A DNA stretch of 64,000 nt from Haliotis rufescens (taxonomy: Eukaryota): positions 14,198,001 to 14,262,000 of the forward strand of contig NW_025964372.1 in NCBI RefSeq assembly GCF_023055435.1. The letters are read 5' to 3'. Below, in pieces: positions 3,893 to 64,000 of the stretch; the stretch's first letter is position 1; the number at the start of each line of letters is the position of its first letter. The position numbers and the translations under genes are program-made. The notes beneath the pieces are model-generated. The model saw only the letters and a program-made list of their open reading frames with translations. It was not told where the DNA came from and made no database searches.

Positions 3893-3906
3893 CTTTAAAG
3901 GATAAC

Positions 3907-4265
3907 TGAAAGTTCCAACACTTCTGTGCTAAATGAGAGGAATGAACTGTGTTTGAATGTTGCAAGGGGTTCAGTTTTCGCGCACATGAAGAAAAACCTT
4001 TTGTTCGTGAGAGAACAAAGACGTATTAGTGTCTTGAGATAATTCAATGCGCTGCAATCGACGAGAAATACACAAATGGGCTTTGAGATTGAGTTGTGAT
4101 TGTGTTTTACCCATCATTACTTTGTTTTTCTTCGTGACTGGCATGCGAAATCAACGGCGACATGCAATCCTCTCCATAATAACCAACACAAGGGAGCTAA
4201 CTAAAAGTTAATTATAACGGACTACCGCACAAAAGAAATAATCAAATTAATGCTGGTCATTAACA
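3907..4265 (-). mobile_element. Putative 5' LTR of the BEL/Pao element
   Basis: On the minus strand it starts TGTTAATGACC (4265) and ends GGAACTTTCA (3907), just upstream of the Gag ATG. Boundaries inferred from TG...CA only; the second LTR is outside the window. Confidence 0.55.
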
Positions 4266-5261: not shown

Positions 5262-7701
5262 TCAGTTGCATCGCTGAATGTTTCGATTAGCAACTACGAG
5301 AAACCATTCCACCAGCTCCTTTCCGAGAATATTGACCAGGTCAGAATCTGCCTGGAGGGCAGATAGTGCCTCGGGTAGAGTGGTTGGTAGAGTATTGGCT
5401 GATTTGGAGTTAGCAGCTGGCTCCTCTGTGTCTGGACATTGAGCAGGACAATCCAGGTTATTGAGTACTCCGTCTAAACCTGCAGCTATAGTCGCTGCAA
5501 GAGTCAGATACGGATTGCTTCTCCCACTTGGAATGCGGTTCTCAAAGTAGACGCCTTGTTTATCAGTATCTGCTTTAACTCGAAAAGACGAAAGACGATT
5601 TTCCAAAGCCCAGTTTATTGTTCTTGGTCTCCTTGGGCGGTGCAATCGATCATAACAATTTACTGTAGGACACCAGAAAGCTGAGAGAGCTCTAGAGTGT
5701 TTTAGCAGTCCACCAAGCCAACATCTTCCAAAATCAGATATACCATCGGGTTTGCTGGAATCACTGAAAATATTTTCACCACTTTCAATCGATAACACCG
5801 AATGATTGTAATGCATTCCGACTTCACCTGTTTTTTGCTTGGACAAAAAACTGACTTTATAATCTGTGTGCTTAGTTGCTACTTCAAGAGCTCCACTTCG
5901 AAAGGTAAAAGCCCAGTCAGCAGCTGTGATGCCTTTGGATGCCTTTAAAACTCCCTCGAAGAGTCCAGCATCCCACTCTGTATGAAAGTTTTCAACGTCA
6001 ACACCTGCATTATGCATGCCATTGTCTAAGGCGTAAAGAAATGCACTGTGTTTTGTGTGGTCCAAGTGATGCATTCGCCATCTTCCCGACGCAGGTAGGT
6101 CTTTATAATACAACATGTATTCCATCTCGAATCCTGACAAAATCGTATACCCATTGTTGGCCAATCGTTGGAGTTGTTGTTTAGCAGCATATCTTGGAAA
6201 ACAGTTAACAGGAGTCTTGTCTTTCAACCAATACGCGTCACATATGACCTCAGCGACCTTGAACTGTTCCCCACCATCCCAGGAAATAGCTTTCATTGTG
6301 CTGAGATCGGGAATGATTACAAAGCCAAAATCCCTTTGCAGTGACGCAGGAACGCCTGAAAATATTTCAAGACAATAATGTCATGTCTATGATAAGTTAT
6401 ATTTCAATGAGGCCATATTAGGATTCACTTGAGACGAATCACTGGTTATGTTCCAGTGTTTAACGCCACAGAATATTTCAGCTGTACACCAGGGTCCTCT
6501 GAATAATTGTCTGGACCAGACAATCAGTTATGATCAAACTTAAAACTTGTCACAAAAAAGTGTAATCTTGAAAAAGATGTTTGTTTAGCTTTACTGTGGA
6601 ACGCACAGAGGTACCACTTACAAGAAGACCTTCAGCTGAAGCACTAACAATATGCTGTAAGTAACAAGGACTTACACATGCAAAAGATGGGAAAAAATAA
6701 TTCATTGCATCACTTCACACTAGAATGTCAATTCAGATAAGGCGCATTTAATTCTTGTTAGATAAATTTTGATAATATGTATTGTAAAAAGTGTGTGATT
6801 TTAATTTGGTAAAATGATTATATAACTGTGATTGTTAGTGGCTGTACCTTCAAATGGGGTTGAAGTAACGTCAAGTAATTGTCCCCCTGAGAGGGTACGT
6901 AAGTCCCACTTAATTCAAAGTATATTTCATTTTCCTGGATTTTAATCGTAGAATACTTGTTGTTTAGTAATGCTTTAGCTTACACTTACTTACAATCACC
7001 AGTGGCCAGAGGGATGGTGTAAATCCTGCTGGGGTACCATGCAGGAAGCAGATGTACAGTAAGTCCCCACGGCCCCTAGTATGGTGACCTAGCTTTGGTT
7101 GCTGGTGATCTCTAGCCCATTTTTATAATGTATTGTTTAGAATAGTCACTTTTTTTATGGAAACATGCTAGTTTTAAATCTATATCTGTGAAAGTCCAGA
7201 GATTTTACTGTCCTTTGTCGAAATACTGAAATACTGTCGATGTGACTATAAATTTTAACTCACTCACTCACTATACCCAACTAATAAACAACAATAACAA
7301 AGTTTTATAAACCATGACAAGATTTTTTGTTTATTTGTTATTTAACGCCTCAACCAGCCATATTCTACCTATTTAATTGAATCTGGACCAGGCATTCAGT
7401 GACTAATATTAAGAGCATCGATCCACAATTGGGATATGACTGACCAGACCAACGAACTTAACCTCACGATTCATTTAATCACCTCTTAAAACCAGCATAG
7501 GTTGCCGGGGACCTACATTCTTACCCGGAATCACAAGACAGGTAGGCTTCTAAGATCATAACACATACCTACTCCTACAGTGACCCCAGTTCTACAGACG
7601 TGTTCGGCATGGCGGCGATGAAGAATTCTTCCTCTGGACTTTCCGGATACGTCACAGACAGTCAGTCGTAAATAGTCGTAGGGTACCGACATCTGAGACA
7701 T
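5262..7701 (-). CDS. Lengsin-like / type I glutamine synthetase-like protein (about 408 aa)
   Basis: Coding exons 7701-7569 (MSQMSVPYDYLRLTVCDVSGKSRGR) and 6355-5262, phase-1 GT-AG intron. GS motifs GFEMEY, HTEWDAGLFE, GMHYNHS, PTVNCYDRL, ENRLSSFRV, YFENRIPSGRSNPYL. AATAAA on the minus strand at 5223-5218. Confidence 0.9.
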
Positions 7702-7969: not shown

Positions 7970-9415
7970 CAGTTTGAGTCTGATACTCAAGAATCGGATA
8001 TAGAATAGGGGGAGTAAATTGAGCCTGATACTCAAGAATCGGAAGTAGAATGGGGGTAGTAGTTAAAGCCTGATACTGAAGAATCGGATATAGAATAAAG
8101 GGAGTAGTTAGAGCCTGATACTCAAGAATCGGATATAGAATATGGGGAGTAAATTGAGCCAGTTACTCAAGAATCGGATATCGAACAGGGGAAGTAGTTT
8201 GAGGCTGATACTCAAGATTCGGATATAGAATATGTAGAGTAGTTTGAGCCTGATACTCAAGAATCGGATATAGAATATGGGGAGCAGTTTGAGGCAGATA
8301 CTCAAGAATCGGATATAGAACAGGGGGAGTAGTTAGAGCCAGATACTCAAGAGTCGGATATAGAACAGGGGGAGTAGTTTTAGCCTGATACTCAAGAATC
8401 CGATATAGAATAGGGGAAATAGTTAGAGCCTGATACTCAAAAGTCGGATATAGAATATAGGGAGTAGTTAGAGCCTGATACTCAAGAATCGGATATAGAA
8501 TATGGGGAGTTAATTGAGCCAGATACTCAAGAATCGGATATAGAACAGGGGAAGTAGTTTGAGGCTGATACTCAAGATTCGGATATAGAATATGTAGAGT
8601 AGTTTGAGCTTGATACGCAAGAATCTGATATGGAAAAGGGGGAGTAGTTTGAGCCTGATACTCAAGAATCGGATATAGAATATGGGGAGTAGTTTGAGCC
8701 AGATACTCAAGAATCCGATATAGAATAGGGGAAGTAGTTTGAGCCTGATACTCAAAAGTCGGATATAGAATAAAGGGAGTAGTTAGAGCCTGATACTCAA
8801 GAATCGGATATAGAATATGGGGAGCAAATTGAGCCAGTTACTCAAGAATCGGATATCGAACAGGGGAAGTAGTTTGAGCCTGATACTCAAGAATCGGATA
8901 TAGAATATGGGGAGCAGTTTGAGGCAGATACTCAAGAATCGGATATAGAACAGGGGGAGTAGTTAGAGCCAGATACTCAAGAGTCGGATATAGAACAGGG
9001 GGAGTAGTTTTAGCCTGATACTCAAGAATCGGATAAAGAATAGGGGAAGTAGTTAGAGACTGATACTCAAGAGTCGGATATTGAATATGGGGAGTAGTTA
9101 GAGCCTGATACTCAAGAGTCGGATATTGAATATGGGGAGTAGTTTGAGCCTGATACTCAAGATTCGGATATAGAATATGGGGAGTAGTTTGAGCCTGATA
9201 CTCAAGAGTCGGATATAGAATATGGGGTGTAGTTTGAGCCAGATACTCAAGAATACTCGGATATAGAACAGGGGAAGTAGTTTGAGAGAGATACTCAAGA
9301 GTCGGATGTAGAATATTGGGAGTAGATTGAGCTTGATATTAAAAAATCGGATGTAGAACAGGACGAGTAGTTTGAGCCTGATTTTAAAGAATTTGATATA
9401 GAATAGGGAGGGTAG
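7970..9415. repeat. 45-bp minisatellite, about 32 copies, in the putative intron 1 of the GS-like gene
   Basis: Unit AGTTTGAGCCTGATACTCAAGAATCGGATATAGAATATGGGGAGT; gives the spurious LKLLPIFYIRFLSIR ORFs. Confidence 0.95.
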
Positions 9416-11424: not shown

Positions 11425-14400
11425 GGGGTATTCGCAGGACGACGACCCCTCGAATTTTTCCATTCGCAGGACGACGACCCGCCGGTACACCTTTGATGTG
11501 TGGTGTTGTTTTAGGAGGGGATTAACTCCTTGGGTAGTGACAAAAACTGAAATATGTACACGAAAACTCAAATGTGTTCAATGAATTGGTGAATTCTGAT
11601 TTTGATAATCTAGTGAGTACCATTTACTCAGCTGATTGACTCAACAGTTACTCTCTTATAAATCTCCGAAACATGGTAGTCTGTCGCCATTAGAGGCTTA
11701 AAACGTCATAAAAAAACACCTAACATTAATAATTCAACAAACCCCGCTGAAAAGGCAAATAACCTCGCCAACAACTTTTCGGCCGTAAGCAGTAACAACA
11801 ACTTTAGCCAAAAATTTCAAGATAAACTTAAAACAGAAAACAAATCCACCAAAGAACCAAATAATGACAACCTAGAAAAAAAACACCCTTACACAATGGA
11901 GGAGCTACTCTACGTCATCCAAAACAGGAAAAAGGGCACAGCCCCAGGATTGGACCTAACTTCCTACCAAATAATTAAAAAACTCCCCCCTAAACTACTC
12001 CAAGCACTACTTAAATTATACAATCTCATCTATCAAAATGGACAAGTACCTACTCCCTGGAAACAGGCCTTAGTCATACCAATCCCTAAACCTAATAAAC
12101 CAGCTAATCAGGCTTACTCCTATAAACCAATTTCCTTAACTTCAAACTTATGTAAAGTAATGGAAGCTATGGCTAAAAACAGACTACAACATTACCTAAC
12201 TCAAAATAACATCATAAACCCAGATCAAACCTTAGATAACCTCGCCCGTTTAGAGCAGAACATTAAAACAGGACAACTCAGCAAACAATATACTACAGGC
12301 ATCTTCTTAGACTTCTCCAAAGCTTTCGACATGGTATGGCACGATGGGCTAATACAAAAACTTAAAAAAATAGGACTCAAAGGTCAGATAATAAACTACA
12401 TCCAAGACTTCCTAAACAATCGTAAAATAACTGTGGGTATAGACCAAACTCTATCGGACCAATGTCCCCTAGAAAATGGCACTCCACAGGGCAGTATCCT
12501 CAGCCCCACACTCTTCAATATAATGATAAACGATCTATTCGAGGGCCTATCCCCTAAAGTAAACACATCAAAATTCGCGGATGATGGAGCCATGTGGATC
12601 CGCACTAAAAGCATGAAAATGGTCCAAAATTTACTCAAAAAATCTCTAAACAAAATACAGCAATGTGCTGACAAATGGGGCTTCTCCCTTAACTCGGAAA
12701 AAAACTACAGGAATAGTATTTAAACACAAAAACATGAAACCCGCCTCCCCAAAACTCCAGCTAAACAACAAACCAATCCAATTCCTAAAACAAACCAAAT
12801 TCTTAGGACTAATTTTCGATGAACATCTCTCCTGGGACGCTCACATAAATAATCTAATAACTAAATGTAGCAAAGATCTAAATACGCTAAGATGCCTCAC
12901 TGGCTCAAACTGGGGGCCTCCAAAGACACCATCCTCTCACTCTATGTATCACTAATTAGATCTATAATAGACTACGGATGTGCCTTTACGACACCCTAAA
13001 CCAATCCCTAAGCAAAAAACTGGACTCAATCCAATATCAGGCTCTAAAACTAATAACACGCACTCAACATGGCACCTCCTAAACTGCACTCCAGGCCTTA
13101 ACAGGAGAAATGCCACTTAGTCTACGTAGGGAACAATTAACCCTAAATTTCTGGTCCGCGTCTCAATCCAACCCCCTAATTCAAAGCCTAATAAACAAAA
13201 ATATAAGCCCAAAGAACCAAGCCCTAGCTCGAAAACACCCTCTACTAACTCCAATATCCCAAAGAATAACCAATTACTTAAATGAACACCAAATAAACAA
13301 TCTTAAACAAAACCGTAAAAAATCAAATATCTTCACCCCAAAACTTAAAACACCCAAAATAGACATAACACTAGCTAGCACAATAAATAAACAAACCGAC
13401 CCAAACATAGCCAAAACCACCACCAAACAATCAAATTTCAAAAACAAACCAAATTCTTAGGACTTATTTTCGATGAACATCTCACCTGGGATGCTCACAT
13501 CCCAAACCTAACAACTAAATGCAGTAAAGACCTAAACACCCTAAGATGCCTAACTAGCTCTAACTGGGGAGCCTCCAAAGAAACCCTCCTCTCTCTCTAC
13601 ATATCACTAATTAGATCAAAACTACGGCTGCGCCATATACAACACCCTAAACAACTCTCTACCTAAAAAACTTGACTCAATACAATATCAGGCTCTCAAA
13701 CTAATTACACGCACCCAACATGGCACCTCCTACACCTCACTTCAGGCCTTAACAGGAGAAATGCCACTAAGTCTACGCAGGGAACAGCTAAGCTTAAATT
13801 TCTGGGCCGCGTCCCAATCAAACCCTCTCATCCAAAACTTAATAAACCAAAACATCAGCCCCAAAAACCAAGCTCTAGCTCGTAAACACCCCTTACTTAC
13901 CCCAATATCCCAAAGAATAACAAACTACCTAAATGAACACCAAATTAAAAATCTTAAACAAAACTGCAAACAATCAAATATATTCACCCCTAAACTTAAA
14001 ATACCCCAAATAGACACAACACTAGCTAGCCAAATAAATAAACAAACCGACCCAAACATAGCTAAAACTACCACACTAGCATACATACACGAAAATTGGC
14101 CAAATTGGTGTCACATTTACACGGACGGATCCTCAGATCCGACCTCCAAACACACAGGTTTCGGAGTCCATACCACACAACCAACTAAAACCACACAATC
14201 CTTCCGACTCCCAAACAACCAATCAATATTCACGACAGAACTAATGGGCATGGCCTCAGCCCTCCATAATCAAGAATCCAAAAACCATAAAAAAATCCTA
14301 ATACTTACCGACTCCCTAAGTGGACTGCAAGCCCTCCAAAACCAAAATACCAAAAAAACCGACCTAAATTAATAAATCAAATACTTAAAAGCTCCAGCGA

Positions 14401-15786
14401 CCTAACTAAGGCAGGCAAACAAATAACCTTCTTGTGGATACCCGCCCTCGTGGGAATATACGGTAATGAAAACGCTGATAAAGCAGCTAAACTATCCCTC
14501 AAAATCCCAGAAATAAGATTAAACTTACCCATCTCAAAATCAGAAATTAAAAGTGTAAACAAGCAAAAAATCACCAAAAAATGGCATAACCTATATCTAA
14601 ACTCATATAGCCACATCAAAAAAGTGCTCAGCAAACCACTAACCAAACCAAAAATTCTCCATCCATAAAAAAAAAAATCGACAGAGTAATCACTAAACTT
14701 CAAACAGGACACACCAACCTAAATAACCACCTAAAAAAACCAAAAAAACACACTACAGGTAACTGCAGCTGCCCACACTGCAAACAACCAGAAACCCCAG
14801 AACACGCACTCATCCACACTACCTAACACATCGAACCGCATTACAAACCACCCTCAATCTAAACAAGGCTCTCACTCTAGAAGCAATACTAAACCCACAA
14901 AATAAACTAGAAAACTTCAAGGCCTTAGGCGTATTCTTAATAAAAACGGAACTAATAAAACGCATCTAAAAACACAATAACCTACCAAATCACATAAACA
15001 AACAAACATCCACCATACCCAGCTCCCTTAATTCTCCTCCCCAACCCCATCGGCACCTATTCCAAATCTCAAAATTCCCAAATTCTATATAAGCAACCCC
15101 TAAACCCCCCTCTTGGGTTGCACAGACCACTTTCGCCCCTTTCGGAAACACATTAAATGGCCTGGCCGGGCCCGTGTGCGAAATACGCATCAGTCGGAAA
15201 GCGCACGTTAAATCTCCAAAGTAAGTAAATAAGTAAGGTAGTCTGTCATCATTCTCGATATGGCAAACGCACAGTTACAGTACACGTTTCTTCCAACTAC
15301 ACGCGGCAGTAGATACCTTTGTACTGGTGGCTACACCTATCGAGTTGGAAGAAGGAAGAGGAATGACTGGATCTCTTGGAAGTCCTCATAACCATGAACC
15401 AGTGAATCATGACTATAAGGTATGCATTACGGCCTCATAAGAATATCAATATTGATACTGTAGGTAAAAAAGACTAGATTACTGTATGATATAAACGTAT
15501 TTATGCAAAGACAATTGCTCCAGACTTTTGTGAATCTTATATGTACGTCATCTTGTCCATATACGTTCAAATTATTTGTAAATAAATCAATATTCCACCC
15601 TTATTGTCTTTCTTTCGTTCGTTTCAAATCCAGTTCCACTTTTTTACTTGCTCGAGTTGTTAAAATAACACTCGATACCCATTGTTTAACTTGATTGGCG
15701 GATTAAAATATTCGCAGGACGACGACCTCACTTTTTGCTAGTTTGTTTTCATACGACACAGGGGGTCGTCGTCCTGAGAATGAACC
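11425..15786. mobile_element. Non-autonomous TIR DNA transposon (Merlin- or MuDR-like), split by a LINE and inserted in a family A SINE
   Basis: TIRs GGGGTATTCGCAGGACGACGACCCC and GGGGGTCGTCGTCCTGAGAATGAACC, subterminal TTCGCAGGACGACGACC repeats, 8-9 bp TSD ATGACGGC(G) at 11417 and 15787. Confidence 0.8.
11692..15236 (+). mobile_element. 5'-truncated non-LTR retrotransposon with RT and RNase H (I/Nimb-like group), frameshifted
   Basis: RT motifs YKPISLTSNLCK, FLDFSKAFD, GTPQGSILSP, FADD; RNase H IYTDGS, TDSLS, WIPALVGIYGNENADKAAK; (AAGT)n tail; 17-bp TSD GGTAGTCTGTC(GC/AT)CATT at 11675-11691 and 15237-15253. Confidence 0.92.
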
Positions 15787-27747: not shown

Positions 27748-29479
27748 CACTCTTCAAAAAGGAAAAGCACAGGTAGATTTTTAGTAAATTTATTGTACCT
27801 AATAAATTCGATATATTTAATTCAAAATCATAGATAAAATGTCACATGTTGTCGTTGTCCAAAGGCATTGAAAACTGTTTATTGTCATGTCACATAAGGC
27901 CATAAGGTTACGCTGAACGTGTGACCGCCCTGGGCAGCAATAACGGCTCTGCATGTCCTCGGCACTGACTGGATGAGTGTACGAATTTTGTCCTGCGGAA
28001 TTCTGCACCATTCTGCTTGTAACGCGTTGGCAAGTTGTGGGAGTGTCTGTAGCGTGTTCTGGCGTTGACGTTTACGTCGATCGAGTTCATCCCAGAGGTG
28101 TTCGATTGGATTGAGATCTTGAGATCTCGACGGCCAGGGCAAGCCGTTGATGTTGACATTATGAAGGTCGTCTAACATGACACGAAATGTGTGCGGTGGA
28201 GCGTTGTCCTGTTGAAACAGCTCCCTCTGGCGGTCAATGATTGGAAGAAGGTGAGGTTGAAGAATTTTATTTCATGCAGCGATTTGCTGTCGAATTTCCC
28301 TGAACCACAACCAAGTTAGATCTCGTGGTGTAGGATATGTATGGCCCCACACATCATGACACTACCGCCAACGAAATTGTCGAAGCATAGTCGCCTTTTA
28401 CGGCAAGCATAGGTTGCTGAAGACCTATTCTACCCCGGATCTTCACGGCACGGACGATAACTGGTCTTCTGGATCGAATTCCAGCCTCGCGAAGATGGTT
28501 CCTGACAGTCTGGTCCAATATCCTCCTCAAACCAGGGTTGGTTTGGTTTTATTGTTTAACGCCGCACTCAGCAATATTCCAGCTATATGACGGCGGTCTG
28601 TAAATAATCGAGTCTGGAACAGACAATCCAGTGATTGACATCATGAGCATCTATCCACGCAATTGGGATCGATGAAATGCATGAACCAAGTCAGCGAGCC
28701 TGACCACCCGATCCCGTCAGTCGCATTTTACGACAAACATAGTCGCCTTTTACCGCAAGCGTGGGTTGCTGAAGACCTATTCTACCCCGGATCTTCACGG
28801 CATGGACGAAAACTGGTCTTCTGGATCGAATTCCAGCCTCGCGAAGATGGTTCTTGACAGTCTGGTCCGATATCCTCCTCAAACCGGGGATGCGTCCTGC
28901 AGTCTCCGCAGCTGTGGCATTGCGATGACCTAGGTGGAACAGTCGAATTTAGCGATCCTGTGCAGGTTGGTTACTCTTGGTCGGTCGGTTCTCGGACGGT
29001 CTGCAGTGGAATTGAACTGTGTGTATCGGTCACAGAGGCGGCAAATGGTGATGAGGTGGACGTTGAAGTGGCGTGCAACAGAAGACTGTGATTCCCCTCT
29101 TTGGATACGTCCTAAGGCGATACGTCCGATCGGCAGTGCTGAGTCTCGGCATTTTCGAGCTTGAAAAATGTTGACGATTGAATGACAAATAATTGGCTTA
29201 TGCTTGCCTTTTTATGGTCACTACCATGAGTTACAAATGTCATAACTTGCACGTGCATTTTGCTTCACTGTTTTCCTCCATGACATTTTTGAACACGTGT
29301 GAAAATAATGCCGTTTTAGACATTGCAAATCGATAATGGCTGCGTTTTGTCGCACCGTTTGTCGAAAATCAGGCCTTCAACATTTTCCAATAACACATAT
29401 CCAGTTTATATACCGGATTTTTTGTGTAGTCATGTTCAATGAACTACATACAACCTGTGCGTTTCTTTTTTGAAGAGTG
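27748..29479 (-). mobile_element. Tc1/mariner transposon with decayed transposase
   Basis: TIRs CACTCTTCAAAAAGGAAAAGCACAGGT and ACCTGTGCGTTTCTTTTTTGAAGAGTG flanked by TA. Transposase from ATG 29152 (MPRLSTAD) to about 27910, with FQQDNAPPH, WPSRSQDLNPIEHLWDEL, GGHT. Interrupted by SINE sequence and an internal duplication. Confidence 0.92.
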
Positions 29480-44403: not shown

Positions 44404-47400
44404 ATGGCCAACAGGACATGCGTCAACATGGTGATTCACATGCTGCTAATCATGCAAGGTAAGCTGGTGATTCATTGAAACACTCAAGAGAGAAGGAATA
44501 TTGTATCAAATATTGCTGAAAATCATTTTCAGGTGAACCGTCGTTATTCAGTTAACACTCGAACATCAAGACATTATTTAACCAAGACATTATGTAACCA
44601 AGACATTATGTAACCAAGACATTATTTAACCAAGACATTATGTAACCATCGCGGTAACAAAATATCTTGCAAGTGTAGATTTATCCGTTTGGAACATCAC
44701 ATATGCCCCATGTACCATAATTGTATGATGTGGAGCTTCTTCTTTTCAAAAGCCTTATCTTTGCTATTGGAGTCCACATGTTAAGCGGTTGTATTCAGGA
44801 ACAGATCGCTTGAGGTATACATAGATTGCTCCAAAGACCCTGGTGACAAAGGATCTCCATAGCAATCAGTTATGTTGCATAGTCATCAAAACCCGGAAGG
44901 TTTGTCGGAGTACCATGAGTTGTGCAATCACAATGCTCACCTATTACTCCTCGCCGTTACCGGCCGCTTCCATGGTCTAGATTGTCTAGACGGAGAGCGA
45001 TAGGTGGATGCTTCGATCCCCGGTCGCATCCTACCAAAAGACGTTAAAGATGGTCGAGTCAGTATAGTGTGTCTGACTGGGGTATCAACGGTAAACCATC
45101 TCTCTCTCTCTTTGACTCTCTCACACTCTCTCACTCCTCTCTCTCTCTCACACTCTCTCACTCACTCACTCACTCTCTCTCTGACTCTCTCTCTCTGTGA
45201 CTCTCTCACTCCTCTCTCTCTCTCTCTCTTTCTCTCAAACGCGACGCTAAACCTCATTTAACCTTACCTAAGTTTACCGTTGCCCGTTGGGCCGACGTTC
45301 GGCTTGTCTCGGAACGACTCGGGTGATTACGAACGGCATGATGGCAATCAAATTCACTAAAGCATGATGAGTTGGCTGTTTACCAGCTGTTTCAGTCGTA
45401 AATCCATTAGTGCCCACTCCTTATACAGGTCTACACTCCCTGGTTCTACTGAGGCCAGACGACCGCAAGCATCATTATCACTGTCGTGGAGGCCGGAAAA
45501 CAACACACCTTCTGCACTGCATGTCTTGTCGTAAGATGTCCAATTGGATTGATTGGCCAGGATATTGATCGCGATCCTTGCTCGTGGTGACTTGATCACA
45601 ATGTGAACCACAGATCCAGACTTATTTACAGGCCGTGGTGATAAAACTGAACAAACAACCACAAATATTTTTCTCTTGCGCATTAGGCATATGGATGTTA
45701 TAATGATAAGTAAGGCAAAATGTTCTCAAATCAAATTTATAAGCATGTTGCCTGGCAACATATACTTGATCAGAGAGCTTTATTATCCTGCACCACCATT
45801 GCGGAATATGTGAATTCAACGTAATCAAACCCAGCCTGAATGATAATTAGAAATAAGCAAGCCTAGCGAGCTACACGTGAAATAAGTATCAGACTTTTAC
45901 TGCAAACAATCCCCAGAGAAATGCATCGTTGCAGAAAGGATTTACCAGATTTGTCATATATGGTTGGCGTTTTGCAGACTTAGTTGACCCCCAGTCAAAA
46001 TGCCAGAATAATAATTCGGAAAATATGGGTTTCAATAATGCAAACTGATTAAAGATGGAAACGTAAGTAAAATCCTATGAATATCACTCATCACTCAAAT
46101 GAACACAATAAACAGTGTTTCGTATAATAATCAGTATGGTTACTTGCATGTAAGAAACGTGGTCAAAGATGTTGTTTTCAATCCTAGTAAGGGATCGGTC
46201 ATTTTTTAAAGGATGGATGTGTCAGAGGTTTTTGATGCACTAATGTACTGAAAATAATGACCCTCCCCTAATGTCTGTCATATTTTGGATGACCAGCCCA
46301 ATGTCCAAAAAACAAAAGCACTTTATATTTTATTATAAAATGTCCATTTTTTCATGACCCTTCCCTGATTCCCTCACTTCCCTATAATAGATTTAGGGTC
46401 ACCTCAAATTAAAAATCTTAAATGAAAGAAATTGCTACATTCAGGAAGAAAAGTCTTAACTGAACCAAATACTTTATATTCAATCGTTTTTTGAATTATA
46501 GAATATTGGACAACACGTCCATTGTTTTTCATATTTCCAGCGTGGTTGCTCTGCGAGTGTTCCGTACAGTTCACCAACACCTCCACAAACCTGAGGAGGG
46601 TTCTCCTGACTGACTACGACGCCCAAGTGCGTCCGGCGCTGAAGACCCAAGTCTCGTTACAGATGGTGCTGGTCTCGCTTAACAGTATCGTACGTACAGA
46701 TGCACTACAACATCATATAGGGTCTCCGTAGACAGTATCGTACGTACAGATGCATTACAACATCACATACGGTCTCCGTAGACAGTATCGTACGTACAGA
46801 TGCATTACAACATCACATACGGTTTCCGTAGACAGTATCGTACGTACAGATGCATTACAACATCACATAGAGTCTCAGTGGGCAGTATCGTACGTACAGA
46901 TGCATTACAACATCACATAGGGTCTCCGTAGACAGTATCGTACGTACAGATGCATTACAACATCACATAGGGTCTCCGTAGACAGTATCGTACGTACAGA
47001 TGCATTACAACATCACATAGGGTCTCCGTAGACAGTATCGTACGTACAGATGCATTACAACATCACATAGAGTCTCAGTGGACAGTATCGTACGTACAGA
47101 TGCATTACAACATCACATAGGGTCTCCGTAGACAGTATCGTACGTACAGATGCATTACAACATCACATAGGGTCTCCGTAGACAGTATCGTGCGTACAGA
47201 TGCATTACAACATCACATACGGTCTCCGTAGACAGTATCGTACGTACAGATGCATTACAACATCACATACGGTCTCCGTAGACAGTATCGTACGTACAGA
47301 TGCATTACAACATCACATAGGGTCTCCGTAGACAGTATCGTACGTACAGATGCATTACAACATCACATAGGGTCTCCGTAGACAGTATCGTACGTACAGA

Positions 47401-50400
47401 TGCATTACAACATCACATAGGGTCTCCGTAGACAGTATCGTACGTACAGATGCATTACAACATCACATACGGTCTCCGTAGACAGTATCGTACGTACAGA
47501 TGCATTACAACATCACATACGGTCTCCGTAGACAGTATCGTACGTACAGATGCATTACAACATCACATAGGGTCTCAGTAGACAGTATCGTACGTACAGA
47601 TGCATTACAACATCACATACGGTCTCCGTAGACAGTATCGTACGTACAGATGCATTACAACATCACATACGGTCTCCGTAGACAGTATCGTACGTACAGA
47701 TGCATTACAACATCACATAGAGTCTCAGTAGACAGTATCGTACGTACAGATGCATTACAACATCACATACGGTCTCCGTAGACAGTATCGTACGTACAGA
47801 TGCATTGCAACATCACATAGGGTCTCCGTAGACAGTATCGTACGTACAGATGCATTACAACATCACATACGGTCTCCGTAGACAGTATCGTACGTACAGA
47901 TGCATTGCAACATCACATAGGGTCTCCGTAGACAGTATCGTACGTACAGATGCATTACAACATCACATAGGGTCTCCGTAGACAGTATCGTACGTACAAA
48001 TGCATTACAACATCACATACGGCCTCCGTAGACGCTCGTTGCTTAAATCAAGACTTACTTGCGTGATCATGCTTAGTGTCGTAATTTCAAGCCAGGTGGC
48101 CATATATTATCATCACGTTCTTGTATTCCTACACACTCTCATGAAGGCGGACCCGTGTCAACAGTAGGAAATGGAACTGTATAGTTAAGTGAACAGTGTT
48201 GACTTCAGAGTCCGGTAAAGAAATAGAAGAACATACTGTAAGTTTGGAAGAAATAGTTAGACCCACATGACATGTACTTCACCTTTGACATTTTTGGAGT
48301 TACAAATTAAATTAATTAAAAGGCATTTACCTTCAGATAAAAAGGGTGGTGGAGTGTCTTGTTTCCGTCTTTGCATGCAGTTACCAATTCCATAAACAAT
48401 AATCTCATTTTAAATGTTCATAAACAGACATTACATGCATTCTGTTTACTTCGACCACGCGAGTCAAACATCCATATTTTCTATTGATAATAACTTTTGT
48501 GTGGTTAGGACAAAGGTGATGTATTCTTGATCAAATCTAACTTTTTTTCCAGGACACGGCGACTCAATCCATGTCTGTCAACTGCCTGTGGTTTACGGTG
48601 AGATATTTATGCATCCTATGATATCATTAATGGAACAAATGTTAATAAATTACATCTTGTATTTATGTTGATGTATGACCCTCCTGAAAAATATCTAACT
48701 GGCGCCGTTTGTGTAAATGTTAAACTAGTAACTGAGTATGATTTTACGCCGCTTTTAGCAATATTCCAGCAACATCACGGCGGGGGACACCAGAAATGGG
48801 CTTCACACATTGTACCCATATGGGCAATCGAACCCGATTCTTCGGCGTGACGAGCGAACACTTTAACCACTAGGCTACCCCACGAGCCAAATAGACATAT
48901 CATGACATCATATGAACGCTTTGTTGCAACTAAATGACGTAAAGATCCTCCATTTACACTGCTTTAAGCAAACATATTCTTTCAAATATTATCTTTTGAA
49001 AACAAGTTTTTTCAGGATATTTTGAATGCCCAGCGATCAATATATTATTTTGTTTAAGTGTACATTTCTAGTCTAGAATGGAAGAAACTCAAGACACGTC
49101 CATCATGACTTTGTCACCAAAACAAATTCAAATGCATATTGGTTCTTGTATGAGTTAGAATACCATGACGATTTGTTTGTTTTTGACCAGACCTGGAGGG
49201 ATGAAAGGTTAACCTGGAACTCCAATCAATACAATGGGACAGACTTTTTGGCTTTGCAAAAGACGGAGGTGTGGACGCCACCCCTAGTCGTGTCCAATGA
49301 GTAAGCAACGTTTTTGATAATAACGATAATCATGTTTTACTAAATATTAAAGGTGTAATCAGTCATTCCTTTTACGAAAATAATATGGCTAAATCCTGTT
49401 CTAAACAACACCCACTGTATCAATGTGGTGGAGCGAACCCGGGTGTATAAAGCCAACACTAACTAGCCAACTAGATTAGTTCAATCGTGGATAAAGTGAT
49501 TCAAGTGCGGATGAAAACAAATCACCAAAAGAGTTTGTCATGGTGTTGAAATACGTTTACACTGAATACACGGTAAACTTTAAGTGCTCATAGTTCTAAG
49601 ATTACTTTGTGGAAATGGACACAAGGGAACCTGGTCAGGGACATGTGAGATAAACATGTAACTAATGAAGGGTTTTATGGACACTTGTGCATGCTGGTGA
49701 CTGAATAAAAGTGAGTGAGTGAGTGAGTTGGGTTTAACGCCGCTTTTAACAGTATTACAGTTATATCGCGGCTCGTCAGCTTAATTTGGGAGGAAAGCCC
49801 GAAGTGATGCAGGTCTCAGACGTTTACCACTTCGGTGAAACCACGAGCACGGGTATGGTGCTGACAAACCTAGAAACATAATCGGGGCGAACTTGGATTC
49901 GAACCCCCAATCATAGGTTTCTGGCGTGCCCAAGGGACGCAACTCTGTACAGGGAATCGCGGCGCCTTAGACGACTGGGCCACCCGTGTCCCTAACTGAA
50001 TAAAAGACGTATGCAAACGTGACCATATATCACGGTTTTATGTAGTACGTACATTTACTTATCAGATATATTTGCATGATTTCAACGCAAATGTATTGAA
50101 TGCAGGTACAATATGGCTTTTAATTTTCATATTTTAACTCACTAATTCTTTTGAAGGACAGTTTGGCCATTTAAAGCATAGCATTTAAAACATACTGATC
50201 ATAAATATGTTATCTGTTATATAGTTCTCAGTTTTTTTCAAGTGACTGGTGTGAAATATATATGACATTGACAAGACCACTCCCATAATAGATACTGAAG
50301 GGGTCTATTTCAATGTCTTCAAAGTGAATAATGTCTCCATGCTGAAATTCGGAAAATTTAGCTTTACGGCACTGAGATAAACTAACGGTGACTTTACTTA

Positions 50401-52938
50401 TGTTTACGAATGCATATTGACACAGAATGTATACAGAATGAATATAATATCTCACGGTATTATGAGTGTGCACCTTAGCAACATAGAGACAAATAGTAAC
50501 AAGTGACTTGGAATTTCAAATTCACAGAATGAACAAAGTTGGACCCATTGGGCAAGAGGGAGTCCCCCTCCGAGTCTTCCATGATGGGAAAATGCTGTGG
50601 ATTCCTCCAACGAGACTAGAAACATCTTGTACCATCGACATATCTAACTATCCATTTGACGTGCAGGCTTGCATCATCAACATTACCGGTTGGACCTACG
50701 CAACTGATGAGCTGGACCTCCACACAGATCCAGACAAACCAATAACGTTAGAATTGTACTCTGCCCATGGAGAATGGGAGCTGACACACACATCTGCTTC
50801 ACTCAGTGACTTTAATGGGGGCTTCAACAAACAATACAGGGACATCCAGTACTCGCTGACCTTCAGACGACGCTGGCAATACTATGGATTGACGCTGCTG
50901 CTGCCCCTTATTCTGAGTTCATGTCTTATGACAGGCGTGTTTGCAGTGCCTGTTGAATCTGGGGAAAAGATCGGCTACTCTTTGACTGTTCTGTTGTCCT
51001 TCACAGTGCTGCTGACGCTCATCTCTGACAGTCTTCCAGCCATATCAACAAGAACCTCAGCTCTGCGTGTGTATAGAAGCTTTCGTTTTGAAACATTGTG
51101 TTTGAGAGATAACTTTGATTAGTCATCACCATTACCTAGACAATGTACAGACCATGTACACGATCCATTTACTAGTAACAAGGCACAGTTTACTACTCTG
51201 AGAACAGAGGTGACCTCCATACACCTGGATCATAATCAGGCGCCGCGGGCTATATATATTTCCATACAAGATGGCCACCTTTGAAAAACGTATCTTTTTT
51301 AAATTTATGAGTGAGTGATTCAGGTTTAACGCCGCCTTTAACATTATTCCAGATATATCACGGCGCGTCAGCTTAATGTGGAAGGAAAGCCCGAAGTGAC
51401 GCATGTCTCAGCCGTTTAACACTTCGGTGAAACCCACGAGCACAAGTATGCATGGTGCTGACAAACCTAGAAACATAAACGGGGCGAACCGGGATTCGAA
51501 CCCACAATCATACCTTTCTGGCGTACCCAAGAGACGCAACTCTGCACATCGAATCGTGGCGCCTTAGACGACTGGGCCACCCGTGCCCCCTTTTACATTT
51601 TGTGACGGAACAGAGTTGTTTTCTAATTTCAAGTGACATTCTCATAGTACAATGCATAAACCAAAATCTATTATGAAAGGACAAATTTTGTAACTGTTCG
51701 CCCGAAAATAGTTATTTGTCGAACCTTTCAATCTTTCAATTTTTCTTTGCAACGCATTATACGACTCGCTGATATGCATAGTTTTCTTCGCCGCATTAGT
51801 GGCACACTCATCAAGATGTGACAAATTTTATATAATATATCGATATTTCCATATTTCGCGATACATGAAAATAAGCTTAACCTTTTCAAGATGCATATAC
51901 ATGTACGTGAGAATCTCTCTATTCAGGATACAGTTATCCTTAAAGCTCAGTATGACTTAATTATTGCCGAAGAGCCAACCCTTGCATCACTTTCTCCAAA
52001 ATGCTGATTTAACGTTCTTTGCCAGGGGTGATTCTAGGGCTGGGACGATTCCAAATTTTATTACACGGCTACCCCACCCCTATTTACCCTACCCTAATTT
52101 GCTAACCGCTGTAGGTCTCAAGTGATGGGTACAAAATGTCCGATTGGGAATAGTTTGACTATAGCCCTGGCAAAATATATTCAGATACACGTATAAAACG
52201 ATATGGTCATGCATTCACTGAAGTTGAACATATGAAAGTCAGAAGGAATGTGTGCATAGTAAGAAAGAAATGCGAACATTAGTGACTTGTAGTGTAACCA
52301 TTGAGTTCAAGATAATGTTTGCTACTATACCACGTGATAAACGGGTTCGGGCAGCCCTTGAGGTACCCGGGTCCTACTCAGTACCCACTCGACCTGAGTA
52401 CCCAAGTTACCAGTACAAGCCCTAGATGATTCCTTATACTTTGGAACGCATTTGTAGTAAAGTGTGTGATTTTAGTTCTCTACACTTTATGTTCATTTCA
52501 GAGATCTACCTAACGCTGGTGATGAATCTGGGCACACTGATCACGTTCCTCACTACCCTGGTCCTGTGGCTGTATTACCAGGATGACAAGAAGCCGCTGG
52601 CTCACGGCACGCTGCTCCTCTACAGAGTCATGGCTGGATGCGCCAGCGTTAAACCCAAGTCCAGAACGGTGAGGCCACAGGGGATGGTATTAGAAGACAG
52701 CGATATTTCAAGGACAACAAGCTCCATGAATACACCCAGGACCAAAACATGTTCCACTAACGTCTCCTCTGCCTGGAGTGACAAGGGAGGTAAACATGAA
52801 GTAGCCGAAGATGTCACCTGGCAAGATTTTGCGAAATGCCTGGATGCATTTTTTCTTCGAGTATTTACGTTTATTTTTATTGCTGTTACTGTTGTATTTC
52901 TGGGGGTTATGTATGGAACTTATTATGCTTCCACGTAG
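44404..52938 (+). CDS. Cys-loop ligand-gated ion channel, nicotinic AChR-like non-alpha subunit (444 aa)
   Basis: Exons 44404-44458, 46541-46689, 48553-48597, 49191-49300, 50528-51066, 52502-52938, phase-consistent, with the typical 45- and 110-nt nAChR exons. Motifs YDAQVRP, WRDERLTW, VWTPPL, Cys-loop CTIDISNYPFDVQAC, GWTY, M2 GEKIGYSLTVLLSFTV, M4 LDAFFLRVF. Confidence 0.92.
44566..44647. repeat. 16-bp tandem repeat, about 5 copies
   Basis: Unit ACCAAGACATTAT(G/T)TA. Confidence 0.85.
45099..45236. repeat. (CT)n/(CACT)n low-complexity tract
   Basis: Direct observation; follows a SINE-like fragment with GCTTCGATCCC near 45010. Confidence 0.85.
46682..48033. repeat. 50-bp minisatellite, about 27 copies, starting inside nAChR exon 2
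   Basis: Unit ACAGTATCGTACGTACAGATGCATTACAACATCACATAGGGTCTCCGTAG. Confidence 0.97.
49712..49994 (-). mobile_element. tRNA-derived SINE family C, full length with 12-bp TSD
   Basis: A-box TGGCCCAGTCGTCTAAGG, B-box GGTTCGAATCC, (ACTC)n tail; TSD ACTGAATAAAAG at 49700-49711 and 49995-50006. Confidence 0.9.
51308..51590 (-). mobile_element. SINE family C copy
   Basis: Near full-length match to 49712-49994. Confidence 0.88.
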
Positions 52939-55015
52939 TTCCGTCCAGTTTGGAATAATGATGCATGTTTAGTAAGTGTTTTATTAACAGAAATAACGAA
53001 ATGTTATAAAAGTCTTCAAAAAGTAAATATGTTTTTGTATATCAATGGAGCCGAGAATGTTTTATGATATAAAATGCCCCGTATACCTCGAACATTAAAA
53101 GTGATTGTTACGCAATATAGTGAAAATGATAGTAAGATGTCACTCACTAATGTTGCTGATATAAATGAATTTCTTGAAAGAAGCTGTCTATATCATTATA
53201 CTACATGCTCTGTAGTATATTTACAGGTATTCTTTCTGTGTAAACAATGACATTCATCACCATAAGTGTCATCAGGCTCGCCTAAATAAAAAAAAATTCA
53301 AAGCAATTCCGTGGCATTTGATTGGCTAATCAAGCAATATTTTTTGCGAGTTTGTTTCTAAAAGCCGAAAAGAAAAAAGGCCACGTCCCAAAAACAGACT
53401 ACTATTTCCTGACTGGATCATATAGAATGGGCGGGGATTGTGTTGCATTATTGCAATGTCACTCTACTATTGTCAACAGGTTTTTGTTTTAACGATTAAA
53501 TAAGCAGCCATGAAAGTTATTATTGTTGACTTATTTATTTATAAGAATCGACTTCAATAAGTCTTTGCCTTTATAGCGGTAAAAGCCATAAACGCAAAAA
53601 ATACGCGGACTTATGCAAAGTTGGACACCGGTTTTTACGTTCCTACCTCCATAAACGCAAAAGATATTGAGGTCAATTCTTATATGATTCTTATAATGAC
53701 ATTAACTCAGCCACACCTCTGTCCTCCTGACCTAATTTCATCTGGAATATGCATATGTAATCATGAATTCATTATACAAAGGCACTATTTAGAATGCCCC
53801 AAATCCCGAGCAGCCAATATCACGGGGTCCGGTGGCCACACTGTAAGAACTGACTGGTAGCCTTGCACCTCGACAGCTCAGATAAATGCTCATTCTATCA
53901 CCCAGTTGTTTCCTCTGTGATTTTGGAGATGCCCGGATGCGCGGACAGCCGCTCATAATGTGTCTGGGCCGGACTCGGTTATTGACGGGACGAATGATGG
54001 CGGGGGAATGATCCTGACTCTGGTTTCAGAGAGACTTAACTCACTTATTTACCACAGACCGTAATATTACTGAAATTATGCCGGCAGCGGCGATAAACAA
54101 CGGCTCGGGTTCACAGCCACGGGGAGATCTACTTGACATTGTCTCTAAGCGTTTTGAGATAAAAGCATACCATCCTCCAGACCTGTTCCTACCTTCTCTC
54201 GGGGTCAGAGGTATCTAGGTAAGGCAAACAATGATATGCAAATTTTAGAAGGTCAACGTGAGTAGATCACACTGTTAGTGGTTATTACACACAACACTGT
54301 CTCCCAGGTAAATAAGTTTTAAGCGCTTATCGGTTGGAAAATGGACTCAAAGTGAGTACGTGTGGCTTAAAGATCACATATATGCACCACTATGACGACA
54401 AGAGGTACATTTGCAGCCACATCGCAAAGAAAACGAATCCACGCAAACGACGTGACGAACAAAACCGTTATGGTGATTATTTTTCGAGAGCTTACGCTAC
54501 TTCGAACAGCCATTTTCTAAAATACGTCAGTTTAATTTGTGAGGTACATGTAGGTAGTGATACAGGTCGAAGAGATGTACCACTTGTCCCACACAGCATG
54601 ATGAGAGGCTCAGAGGCTGATCACGAGTCTCATTTTCATAAAACAGTTATCTCGCGCAACGACATGGTTAACTCTATGACTGGGATAATTGTACCAAGTG
54701 CTCGATAACGCTATCGACGAAGAGTGCTGACGTCAAGATCTCTTCTCAAGGTGACCTGCTGAATTCCATATCAGTAGTGTTATTTTAAGAACAGTGTACA
54801 ATTTGAAAAAAAAATATATTATTGTAATCCACTATGTTGATGTACTGTCTCTCATAGGCACATATGGCGGCCGTTGTACATGATATGTTTTTTTATTTGT
54901 GGATGGTTTTGTGCTTGGATGTACTCTCTCTGTCTGCCTCTCTGTGTGTCTCTCTGTGTGTCTCTCTGTGTGTGTGTGTCTCTCTCTCTCACATAATATA
55001 GTTGTATATTGTAGG

Positions 55016-56533
55016 ATGAGCAACTGTACCATTCGGTTGGCAACTCTGAGGGACTATGAAAATGTGTTATCTATTGGCGAAGTATACAATGGAGTGGATT
55101 ATCTCCCTTGTAAATATACTGAGTTCTTGGAAGACGACAACTACATGAACTTCCTATGTATTGTAGATGGGGAAGTGGTAAGTATACAACTCGCTTATCT
55201 GGACGCTAAGGCTATATAATGAAGGACGAAGGCTGAGTGCGGCCTATATATAAAATCAAATCTGGACCAGACAATTCAGTGATTGACATCATGATCTACG
55301 CAATTAGGATACGATGACATGCATCAACCAAGTCAGCCGAATGATCTCAATCCCATGTTTTTACCATGTTCAATTTCATTTACAATGTACACTGGGTGGA
55401 ATGCAGGTATTGTATGACTGACAACAACATTTATTCATTAATTCCCTCATGCATTAATTCATTAATTCAGTAAGTACATGTATAGTTACTATGTTCCATC
55501 GTCTTTCTTGTGCAACTGCTTGAGAAACTGTTTCTGTGTAATTAGGGTAAATATGTTCTGTAAGGCTGATAAAAACAGAAGTTACTGGACTCTCATCTTT
55601 TCCCGCACCTCATATCCCTATAACTCTTCTCAGATTGGCTTCCTGTGTGGAGCATTGATTGACAACCGTGAAGCATTTGTGCTGAGAGCTGGAAGGGTCA
55701 AGGACGCCTATCAGGGTCAAGGTTACTACAAGGCCCTGAGAAGTCATCTATACCAAACAATGTCGACAATCAAATCAGTGAAATATGAAAAATTGGTTGT
55801 GTTCAAAGCAATTGCTGAGAAGCTGCTACAACCAGATAGTGGCTTTGAACACATAGCTATGCAGGTGAACATACGCTCGGTCCTTTCCATTCTACAACAG
55901 TATAATTTGTTTCACTTATAATTGCAAGTTGTAATCAAGTTGAACTTTTACTTACTAAATGTTGGTAGTTTAATGTCCATTGTTAGTGTACATTCACATG
56001 TACCATTTTTATTTCAGAAGGTTTATACCTATGCGATACCAGAAAGTGTTGTCGAGGAGGCATCATCTGACCTCCAACCTTTGAACCAGAAAGACCTTCA
56101 CCGCCTGCTCTCTGACCCGGAAACGCGTGACATCTTGTTTCCGGGAGGAATCCTGTATGTGCACAGAATGCCATATAAACTAACCGAAGGCAACTTTGCC
56201 AGTATTTTTAACAAAAGAACTGTCTTGTTCGGCAGTCCATCCCGTAACAACAAATATAAGCTTGTGACGACTGGACATTACTTCAATGTTAAGTTAGGCT
56301 TTCGTTACATTTTAGACATATACGGATCGTCACCAGAAGACTTCACGCACCATTTCAAGGCTCATTTGGCACTCATTCGGAATTTACACAAAGGAAAGAT
56401 AACAGTTACTATCTTTACCCCACAGACGTTCCCTGTCGCCGTTATTGACGATATCCTGACTCGCGTCGGGGCTATTTTCCAAGAGTCGTTTCTCTCAGAA
56501 GAACATTCATTTAGAAGATGTGTCTCAGAATAA
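55016..56533 (+). CDS. GNAT N-acetyltransferase, NAT16/histidine N-acetyltransferase-like (about 302 aa)
   Basis: Exons 55016-55177, 55634-55864, 56018-56533 with phase-0 introns. IRLATLRDYENV, VYNGVDYLP (YxGxDYLP), IDNREAF, acetyl-CoA motif RVKDAYQGQG. Confidence 0.85.
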
Positions 56534-62751: not shown

Positions 62752-63140
62752 TTATAGGGCAGATGAGGTGGCAGCAGAAGTATCTTCACCTTCCGTTTGT
62801 TGTGTTCCTCCCTGTTGATCTGTTTCCTTGATATGGGGACTCTTTCGACATTTATATATGGTTACGACTGAACATGTGAAAACGCTAACTGCAATGGGAA
62901 CGCCAAGCATTATTCCAATGACACTAATGCTCTTATCATCGATAGGATAATTCAAAATAAACAGAAAACAGATCAACATCAGTACCATTAGGCTGAAGAA
63001 GAAAACAAAAGCACAAGTATCGAGCGCCTTCACTGTTCTCATGCGGTCACTGACATCAGCAGGGTGGTTAGTATAGAGCACCATCAAGGAACACACAATC
63101 ATTAGTGCACCGCACGTCATCGTTGAAGAAATGTATACAC
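62752..63140 (-). CDS. Terminal exon (M3-M4 plus extension) of a second Cys-loop/nAChR-like subunit; rest of gene beyond the window
   Basis: Acceptor TTTTTCAG| at 63141, same phase and position as the last exon of the plus-strand gene. VYISSTMTCGALMIVCSLMVLYTNH aligns to IYLTLVMNLGTLITFLTTLVLWLYY (M3); VKALDTCAFVFF aligns to AKCLDAFFLRVF (M4). Confidence 0.72.
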
Positions 63141-64000
63141 CTGAAAAACATATAAAGTATTTATTCTTATTATGTTTCACGCATCCAGGAAGTGAAACTA
63201 AGTCGTTTGTCATCACAACAAAATGCGGGTTTCCAACTCTCTGGGGAACAGATGGAAACGGGGTGACACAGGTTAACTCTTGGTTTTCGTGATTGGAACA
63301 TTTCAGTGATGGTTTCCATGCAACGGTTTATGTAGACACTTTCAGTTGTTTGAGTTTTACTGTAGTATGTGACACTAAATGGAAACCACCAAACAACACC
63401 CCATGTCAACAACTACATTATACTCACTAGGTTCCCATGCGTATCTTTCATTTAAATTTGATTCATTATACTGTTATTAATGAATAATACAGATTTGTTT
63501 CGTACTTCCCTTTTTTAAAAGAACTAAATGTATGTGGATAAACCAACTAACATACCAAGCAATTATCGGCAGATAAACAATAACTGGCTACATCTCGTTT
63601 TGAATTTACAAACTCCAAAACAAATCATATTACCGATATCATTTACACAGTACATTGATGTCTCGTGGTGTAAGATTAACTCAGTCTCAAATATAGAAAT
63701 GGAGATATAATAATAAATATTGACCAAGAGTCCGTTATGCATAAAGATACATTGCAAATGTAGCCACTTTTGATCGCATACCGATAAATGTACTGTGCGA
63801 CAATATGAGTTATTGCCATGTATCTGTAACACACGCTGACGTAAATAGGATATGTATGGTTATTATTAATAACTTGATGTATTTTACAATGTATATGATG
63901 CAAATCGATTTTCCTCTGACGTCAAACACGGTGGAGAGATCAACACATACTCCAAATAAAAGGGGCATACCTGTTAACTGTAGCCCATTGTCCATTTAAG

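Follow-up and report, generated by a model that had tools for sequence, protein, structure and literature searches.

The window analysed here, 64,000 nucleotides of the Haliotis rufescens genome (positions 14198001-14262000 of contig G000:C594), contains near its right edge the coding part of exon 6, the last exon, of an nAChR-like gene, copy A (62752..63140, minus strand). The exon lies in a minus-strand stop-to-stop frame (63327-62752; stop codon 62754-62752) and is recognized by this open frame, its acceptor, its match to the named record P0001, to the end of which it is 100% identical, and a homologous spliced exon in a sister gene, copy C. The acceptor, a T-rich tract followed by TTTCAG (63141..63165, minus strand), is of phase 1 and gives an in-frame join to the M1-M2 exon; a GT..AG joint at exon 6 is also present in copy-C-type contigs. 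Positions 63166..64000 (minus strand) belong to the 1.8-kb intron 5 of copy A, and an exon 5 remnant lies 960-1333 bases past the right edge of the window.

The exon reads, in order, M3, short loop, M4, a turn of nine residues, an uncharged stretch of 24-26 residues, basic cluster and polar tail, all on the minus strand; the first-pass annotation had described these parts, with a loop of about 15 residues, and its description holds. M3 (63070..63138) aligns with M3 of the nAChR beta4, beta2 and alpha7-like subunits, and corresponds to helix 293-318 in a structure model of copy C. The cytoplasmic M3-M4 loop (63028..63069) is reduced to about 14 residues, without an MX helix or long loop; counted from HPAD to KALD it has 16 residues (14 by helix limits), vs. 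90 in the neighboring paralogue. M4 (62950..63027) was placed by the M4 columns of a 93-row alignment and by superposition of the model on an nAChR alpha subunit. The polar turn (62923..62949; coil 359-366 in the model) is predicted to be extracellular, its side following from canonical topology. Next comes M5, predicted to be a fifth helix spanning the membrane and bearing the motif G-x-x-L-G-[IV]-P (62851..62922; hydropathy, and helix 367-394 in the model), and finally a basic, then polar tail (62755..62850), predicted to be cytoplasmic from the K/R cluster behind M5, in which the first ten or so residues alone are conserved. Hydropathy and AlphaFold both place three helices in this exon, in agreement with the earlier claim of more than two; a Pfam scan of the exon alone gave hydrophobic matches only, all sub-threshold.

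The neighboring paralogue is a four-helix nAChR-like gene with a 90-residue loop (46522..52938, plus strand; exons near 46522, 49176, 50529-51071, and 52500-52938; P0023/P0165), which served for internal comparison. Between it and copy A lie histidine N-acetyltransferase-like exons (54884-56533, plus strand; PF24066, E 2.5e-15), and a long open frame elsewhere in the window encodes a glutamine synthetase catalytic domain (5262-6380, minus strand; PF00120, E 9e-63). The window also holds a Bel/Pao retrotransposon polyprotein frame (2-3928, minus strand; PF03564, PF05380), a fragmented non-LTR retrotransposon (11680-14668, plus strand; RVT_1, RNase H), a Tc1/mariner-like transposase fragment (27885-28271, minus strand; DDE_3, below cut-off), and a tandem repeat whose open frames encode a recurring unit of 15-18 residues, without Pfam matches (8163-9338, minus strand).

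Copy A and the tandem array

With the window numbering continued along the contig as region positions, the window exon has three close genomic copies: A in the window, B at region 89.6 kb (81% identity to the window exon), and C at 163.6 kb (79%), about 100 kb from copy A. They are part of a 207-kb tandem array of nAChR-like genes in the order four-helix neighbor, A, B, F, D, C, E. Copies D and E (L018:9376-L019:814 and L024/L025; region 136-138 kb and 194-200 kb) represent a second five-helix type, with an intron after M3 and a last exon that comprises M4, turn and hydrophobic helix; compared to the C type, 88/180 positions (49%) are identical in exon 5. Both are broken, since copy D has lost M1-M2 and copy E carries a stop; in copy B, a TAA interrupts the M2-M3 loop. 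The M4-turn-helix layout thus recurs in five copies in the H. rufescens genome, and it is also found in named proteins of three further Haliotis species. Four of the five genomic copies are broken, and in H. cracherodii the D type is likewise truncated, in a record that was the sole find when 207 candidates were searched for full-length D-type orthologues; the subfamily may therefore be decaying.

Several features of the array deserve separate mention. Copy F (L016/L017, region 115.5-118.0 kb) is an nAChR-like gene with four helices whose frame appears to be open; its M3-M4 loop is short, at about 25 residues, and highly charged. Near region 128.1 kb, there is also a fragment of a similar kind. 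A segmental duplication of 90-95% identity (region 75-90 kb vs. 150-164 kb; L012-L014, L020-L021) carries copies B and C, and D and E apparently correspond to the second gene of the duplicated unit. In B and C, the stretch that encodes M2 is partly repeated in tandem just inside intron 5 (L021:5069-5175 and its L014 equivalent). Between C and E (region ~170-181 kb; L022-L023), a cluster of open reading frames resembles a Polinton/Maverick-type element; by eye, we take these frames to be polymerase-like, ATPase-like, and capsid-like.

Copy A itself looks like a pseudogene, a broken duplicate of an abalone nAChR-like gene. Its exon 1 has no in-frame ATG; exon 3, found only in B and C, is missing (the best local score in the copy A intron was 18, compared to a shuffled mean of 20); and a loss of about 517 bases has removed the acceptor of exon 5 together with residues 116-171, among them the two cysteines of the Cys loop. 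The copy A region contains zero N characters. The annotated product, P0001, is a headless 247-residue protein with PF02932 only, in which signal peptide, ligand-binding domain and Cys loop are all missing. The first-pass annotation had read the window exon as part of a five-helix subunit; the window copy is not an intact subunit gene, since start codon, exon 3 and Cys loop are absent. Both the donor of exon 5 and the acceptor of exon 6 are intact, and the frame is open from an internal Met through M1-M5. DNA contigs of two runs match intron 4 of copy A (4 differences in 180) and depart exactly at the deletion point, and the intact H. cracherodii protein P0006 has A-type residues in exons 2 and 4; therefore, the loss in copy A looks recent or polymorphic.

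Copy C, an intact and spliced gene

Copy C has six coding exons (five introns) and yields the named 407-residue protein P0003, which matches PF02931 (E 1e-32, residues 33-230) and PF02932. Its Cys loop (Cys-x13-Cys, C152-C166) is invariant in the 93 alignment rows, and its best sequence match is nAChR beta4 (E 2e-34). The M1-M4 bundle with the pore-lining M2 is present; model residues 25-361 superpose on residues 1-433 of the Torpedo nAChR alpha subunit, to the end of M4, with Z 31.4 and an rmsd of 1.7 over 331 residues, and the M1-M4 fold is accordingly predicted to be that of nAChRs.

Nineteen sequencing runs contain part of copy C, none of them on record as RNA and 14 guessed by the tool to be RNA; four runs (X1, X5, X9, and X10, with RNA status again being the tool's guess) were aligned to the gene. 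Contigs of X1, X5, and X10, three studies of probable RNA, join introns 3, 4, and 5 of copy C at GT..AG, and X9 has the first joint only. Record 15 of X5 begins at the end of exon 5/M2, covers M3, M4, M5, and the stop codon, and continues into the 3′ region; it shows 2 differences from copy C. In the comparison with copy A, 37 of 40 listed differences were tested, with 85 more beyond these; from 5851 onward, 26 of 30 equal copy C, and the other 7 tested correspond to low-depth, unspliced A-like pieces of X5. The spliced contigs are of the copy C type, with the caveat that contigs drop rare forms, and none among the contigs of the tested runs combines splicing with copy A letters; the A-like tail and 3′-end pieces in X5 are of low depth and unspliced. 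The joined introns and the copy-C-type letters therefore establish that copy C is spliced. The earlier expectation that the exon joins ligand-binding exons is borne out in this intact sister copy, and copy C probably represents a real five-helix subunit.

Copy C has kept its gating parts: the Cys loop, Arg229 before M1, Pro285 in the M2-M3 loop, the GEK motif, Leu 9′, and Glu 20′; position 16′ of M2 is Ser. M1-M2 is identical across species at 62-63 of 63 positions. The GEK before M2 (G260-E261-K262) places Glu at -1′, with no Pro at -2′. In pentameric ligand-gated ion channels, this combination is the rule for cation selectivity, and a cation-selective pore is inferred from the sequence. The ligand-binding site has diverged. 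With the aromatic box positions (loops A, B, C, C, D) taken as they are given in part of PMC10338036, two of five are kept (Trp173, Tyr218), and the other three places are occupied by Thr113, Gly212, and Leu77; opposite the vicinal cysteines of loop C in an alpha7-like protein, copy C has a gap. With the vicinal cysteines and three of five box residues lost, the ligand is likely not acetylcholine, as judged from these replacements.

The fifth helix and its evolution

The extra stretch is more hydrophobic than established helices of the same proteins: its best 19-residue Kyte-Doolittle mean is 2.26 in the window and 2.6-3.0 in relatives, whereas M2 (1.71) and M3 (~2.0) both fall below it. In the window it forms a 26-residue uncharged run with a hydrophobic moment of 0.10 and four K/R in the next 10 residues. 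Across nine M5 sequences, mean hydropathy is 2.05-2.85 and the moment 0.02-0.18; the motif G-x-x-L-G-[IV]-P occurs in 9/9, and an uncharged run of 24-29 residues in 8/9, with charges inside M5 only in the broken copy E. The named orthologues of H. cracherodii, H. rubra, and H. asinina retain M5 and hence run past M4, contrary to the refuting case envisaged earlier, that orthologues stop right after M4. In the 93-row alignment, the first helix after M3 falls into the M4 columns (96% occupancy) and the second into columns with 2% occupancy in other relatives. A misread MX helix was considered as an identity for the extra helix and rejected, because alignment and superposition show that it follows M4, not M3. 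Between the C type and the D/E types, turn and M5 align with a score of 45, which was matched by shuffles in 1/5000 (D) and 58/5000 (E) cases.

The AlphaFold2 model of copy C, built from the 93 rows, has a pLDDT of 87.8 and a pTM of 0.81, with helices at 325-358 and 367-394; the M5 helix (367-394) is the least confident one (pLDDT 64-74), and only 5 of the 93 rows cover it. Structure matches beyond residue 364 were absent among the 50 listed, and in a wide structure search the top 33 rows of the pLGIC family all end at 365 or before; unrelated helical bundles align over 256-401 (Z 8-11), no more than a hint that the model folds M5 back along the bundle. The best ESM Atlas score, 0.85, is at chance level. 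On prediction, copy C departs from the plan of four helices with an outside C-terminus by its fifth hydrophobic helix at 367-394; M5 is predicted to cross back from outside to inside, which would leave the C-terminus in the cytoplasm.

Among the relatives compared, this layout is unusual. From 162 proteins, 27 over 600 residues and 4 without the M3 anchor were set aside; for the 131 that were scored, the number of hydrophobic windows after M3 is one in 101, none in 17, two in 11, and four in 2. Nine of the 11 two-window proteins are the five-helix subfamily; the other four multi-window cases, among 122 non-subfamily relatives, appear by eye to be two internal duplications, one weak post-M3 window, and one low-complexity run. 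The distance from M3 to the M4 window is 21-23 residues in the subfamily vs. a median of 93 in the 101 four-helix relatives; the large intracellular M3-M4 domain of animal Cys-loop receptors is thus reduced to about 14 residues, and an equally short loop occurs in only 1 of the 101, the abalone sister P0065. Genome-wide, there are at least 151 PF02931 matches, many of which are tandemly clustered frames of about 400 residues without introns. Among 40 intronless abalone genes hand-picked across clusters from these matches, 38 have one post-M3 helix, two are truncated, and none has two. A relative outside Haliotis with M5 was not found among the best 150 of 7485 representatives; on these sequences, the five-helix plan appears to be confined to this one genus, with four species represented.

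In exon 5 trees, one clade (support 99/96 and 82/90) unites the C type, the D/E type, and a three-helix type (P0012, P0013); its sister is a short-loop four-helix group, followed by the long-loop neighbors. This branching fits an order in which the loop shrank first and M5 was gained second; the AU test (p 0.072) neither establishes nor rejects a single origin of M5. The earlier assignment to a mollusc-expanded nAChR-like family is upheld. Its comparison of the short loop to a prokaryotic trait does not carry over, because the same array includes a four-helix sister group with a short loop and because the whole group lies within the mollusc nAChR-like genes; likewise, a prokaryotic origin was rejected by the tree, which contains no prokaryotic row and in which the group nests with abalone four-helix paralogues. 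The three-helix type (G000:C605:10249531-10253233; L028, L076) is an apparent M4-less subunit that ends after M3, annotated in two abalone species with a polar tail partly conserved between them; its last exon is tandemly duplicated, its GEK motif is altered, and no M4 or M5 exon was found in the 20 kb downstream of the gene.

M5 is the fastest-evolving of the helices: identity to H. asinina and H. rubra is 16/24 in M5, 22-23/26 in M4, and 62/63 in M1-M2. The dN/dS check proposed in the first-pass annotation, run on the last exon of copies A, B, and C, gave no purifying signal on M5, with too few changes; pN is 0.216 vs. pS 0.080 between copies C and A (11.5 vs. 1.5 changes), and 0.093 vs. 0.162 between C and B. 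In seven C-type M5 cores, 0 of 14 minor states (~11 after removing an indel shift) are charged, strongly polar, Pro or Gly, compared to 30% expected for random nonsynonymous changes; this test (p about 0.02-0.06, on related sequences) gives modest support to selection on the hydrophobic character of M5. The first nine residues of M5, with the GxxxG-x-P motif, are close to invariant. To judge from the sequences compared, what is conserved in the extension is hydrophobic character and one motif. The tail is 9-34 residues long overall and 13-34 in the C type, where alone 8-9 of its first 10 residues are identical. The proposal that it replaces the lost intracellular domain has to be abandoned: a tail so short and mostly unconserved, with some ten conserved residues in one type only, is no stand-in for a 90-residue domain, and it would at most be a basic, cysteine-bearing anchor.

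Interpretation and comparison with known receptors

The most probable interpretation, held with reasonable rather than high confidence, is that the copy C subunit, with five predicted helices and a cytoplasmic C-terminus, forms a cation channel for an orphan ligand, that M5 is a built-in accessory helix, and that a broken duplicate of the gene has its last exon in the window. The intracellular loop would have shrunk, and M5 would then have been added once in this clade. M5 could use its GxxxG-x-P face to pack against M4, M3, and M1 from the lipid side, and by pinning the outer end of M4 it may aid assembly or tune gating, in the manner of the separate small membrane partners of other nAChRs; such an accessory role is suggested by motif and analogy. 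As background, chimeras show that receptors differ in whether they can function with a heptapeptide M3-M4 loop (PMC4891346), and the M4 outer tip and radial contacts are proposed to couple binding to opening (PMC8119899).

Other readings of the same evidence differ in what they make of the extension. M5 could span the membrane as a tolerated appendage that arose by read-through, hydrophobic only to spare folding and without a role in assembly or gating. Its rapid evolution, the missing dN/dS signal, the variable length and sequence of the tail, and the four broken copies out of five are what such an appendage would show; yet its first nine residues, which include GxxxG-x-P, hardly vary, the motif is common to two types that have diverged in exon 5 by about one substitution per site, and intact orthologues in four species have no charge in the M5 core, so that this reading is regarded as unlikely. 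That the stretch is instead re-entrant or surface-lying, with the C-terminus outside as in other Cys-loop subunits, is very improbable: the proline and two glycines near the start of M5 could kink the helix, the confidence of the model is moderate here, and the predicted fifth helix of annelid Alpo2 has been explained as an MX helix (in the relevant part of PMC4801368), but the extra helix of the abalone protein comes after M4 rather than M3, and uncharged runs of 24-29 residues in eight of nine sequences, low moments (0.02-0.18), and basic residues directly behind them argue for a membrane-spanning helix.

The function of the subunit and the status of copy A can also be read differently. The loss of most of the aromatic box and of the vicinal cysteines, Ser at 16′ of M2, and the many divergent lophotrochozoan receptors that are still orphans (as stated in a section of PMC10338036) would suit a structural or non-conducting subunit, or a sensor, in heteromers with other array members; this is quite unlikely in view of the near-identity of M1-M2 across species and the retention of Cys loop, Arg229, Pro285, GEK, and Leu 9′, and it overlaps with the orphan-channel interpretation if conduction occurs only in the heteromer. 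Copy A, for its part, might be alive as a headless 247-residue membrane protein that enters assemblies with the intact subunit and dampens it, in the way of human CHRFAM7A with alpha7; its open frame from an internal Met through M1-M5, annotated as P0001, its intact exon 5 donor and exon 6 acceptor, and the low-depth A-like tail and 3′-end pieces in X5 speak for this, and three separate lesions, spliced contigs without copy A letters, and a loss that looks recent (contigs leave at the deletion point; A-type residues in intact P0006) speak against it; this reading is very unlikely. Far more speculative than the accessory-helix interpretation, and improbable as a whole, is a scheme in which abalone Cys-loop channels break the four-helix rule both ways: the five-helix subunit would be a fused auxiliary subunit, its three-helix sister (P0012/P0013) would have a conserved cytoplasmic tail, and the two would co-assemble into a chemosensory channel in which the spare M5 fills the empty M4 groove and all C-termini are cytoplasmic.

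The predicted five-helix plan bears on general questions of receptor architecture. For the superfamily, four helices with the C-terminus outside are regarded as invariable, and its animal members are regarded as typically having a large inner loop (PMC4801368, PMC4891346, PMC8119899). An animal subunit with a bacterial-sized loop and a helix on the M4 outer tip bears on the question of M4/lipid coupling as it is framed in part of PMC8119899. The copy C subunit is small and needs no loop engineering for cryo-EM, and its four-helix short-loop and three-helix sisters are natural controls.

Compared to vertebrate and Torpedo nAChR subunits (PDB 7QL6, 8UT1, 8ZRN), copy C is alike in signal peptide, beta-sandwich, Cys loop, M1-M4 bundle, and GEK motif; in contrast to them, it has a loop of about 14 residues, a fifth hydrophobic helix, and a C-terminus predicted inside, without vicinal cysteines and with two of five aromatic-box residues. 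Tandem arrays, divergent binding sites, pseudogenes, and varied domain layouts are shared with the mollusc-expanded nAChR-like genes, as these are presented in sections of Jiao et al. (2019; PMC6896357). The main text of that study has no abalone, and its bivalve 'LBD-NTM-TM' class is a SMART label (PMC6896357). The Pfam membrane model covers M1-M3 only, even in the ordinary four-helix neighbor, and therefore M4 alone can yield this label; the class, as described in the main text, is not a demonstrated fifth helix (PMC6896357). The prokaryotic channels GLIC, ELIC, sTeLIC, and DeCLIC have a very short M3-M4 linker, as copy C does (PMC4891346, in part); they end after M4, whereas copy C has a Cys bridge, five introns, and a weaker structural match to them (Z 20-23). 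Alpo4, squid CRB1, and octopus CRT1 have an nAChR-like fold without the acetylcholine signature (from a section of PMC10338036) and match copy C with Z 25.1, 23.4, and 22.1; Alpo4 has a long loop, and the alignments of all three end at M4 or earlier. The octopus CRT1 chain (PDB 9E6B chain A) aligns only to the end of M3, with 292 residues modeled, which suggests that M4 is unresolved or absent there. Chemotactile receptors are described, in an excerpt of PMC13174522, as intronless and mainly cephalopod; copy C, in contrast, has six coding exons.

Two further systems resemble single aspects of the abalone genes. CHRFAM7A/dup-alpha7, as described in part of PMC8998457, is similar to the copy A frame in lacking the signal peptide and most of the binding domain and in keeping all helices; copy A differs in that it arose by deletions, not by fusion, and in that the spliced contigs seen are of the copy C type. 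In the literature searched, from which subscription journals are largely absent, no five-helix pLGIC subunit is described beyond the Alpo2 prediction; a match to 'five transmembrane' in PMC7419010 concerns UNC-50 and was discarded. The five-helix subunit is a real variation on the Cys-loop subunit plan that seems not to have been described before, and the window shows it in the form of a broken copy. EAT-18, which we take to be a small membrane protein, offers an analogy to M5 by role; it is a separate protein, unlike M5, which is built in. The non-alpha homomeric receptor EAT-2 needs EAT-18 as an extra partner for functional expression (PMC7173930), and M5 may provide a comparable service from within the subunit.
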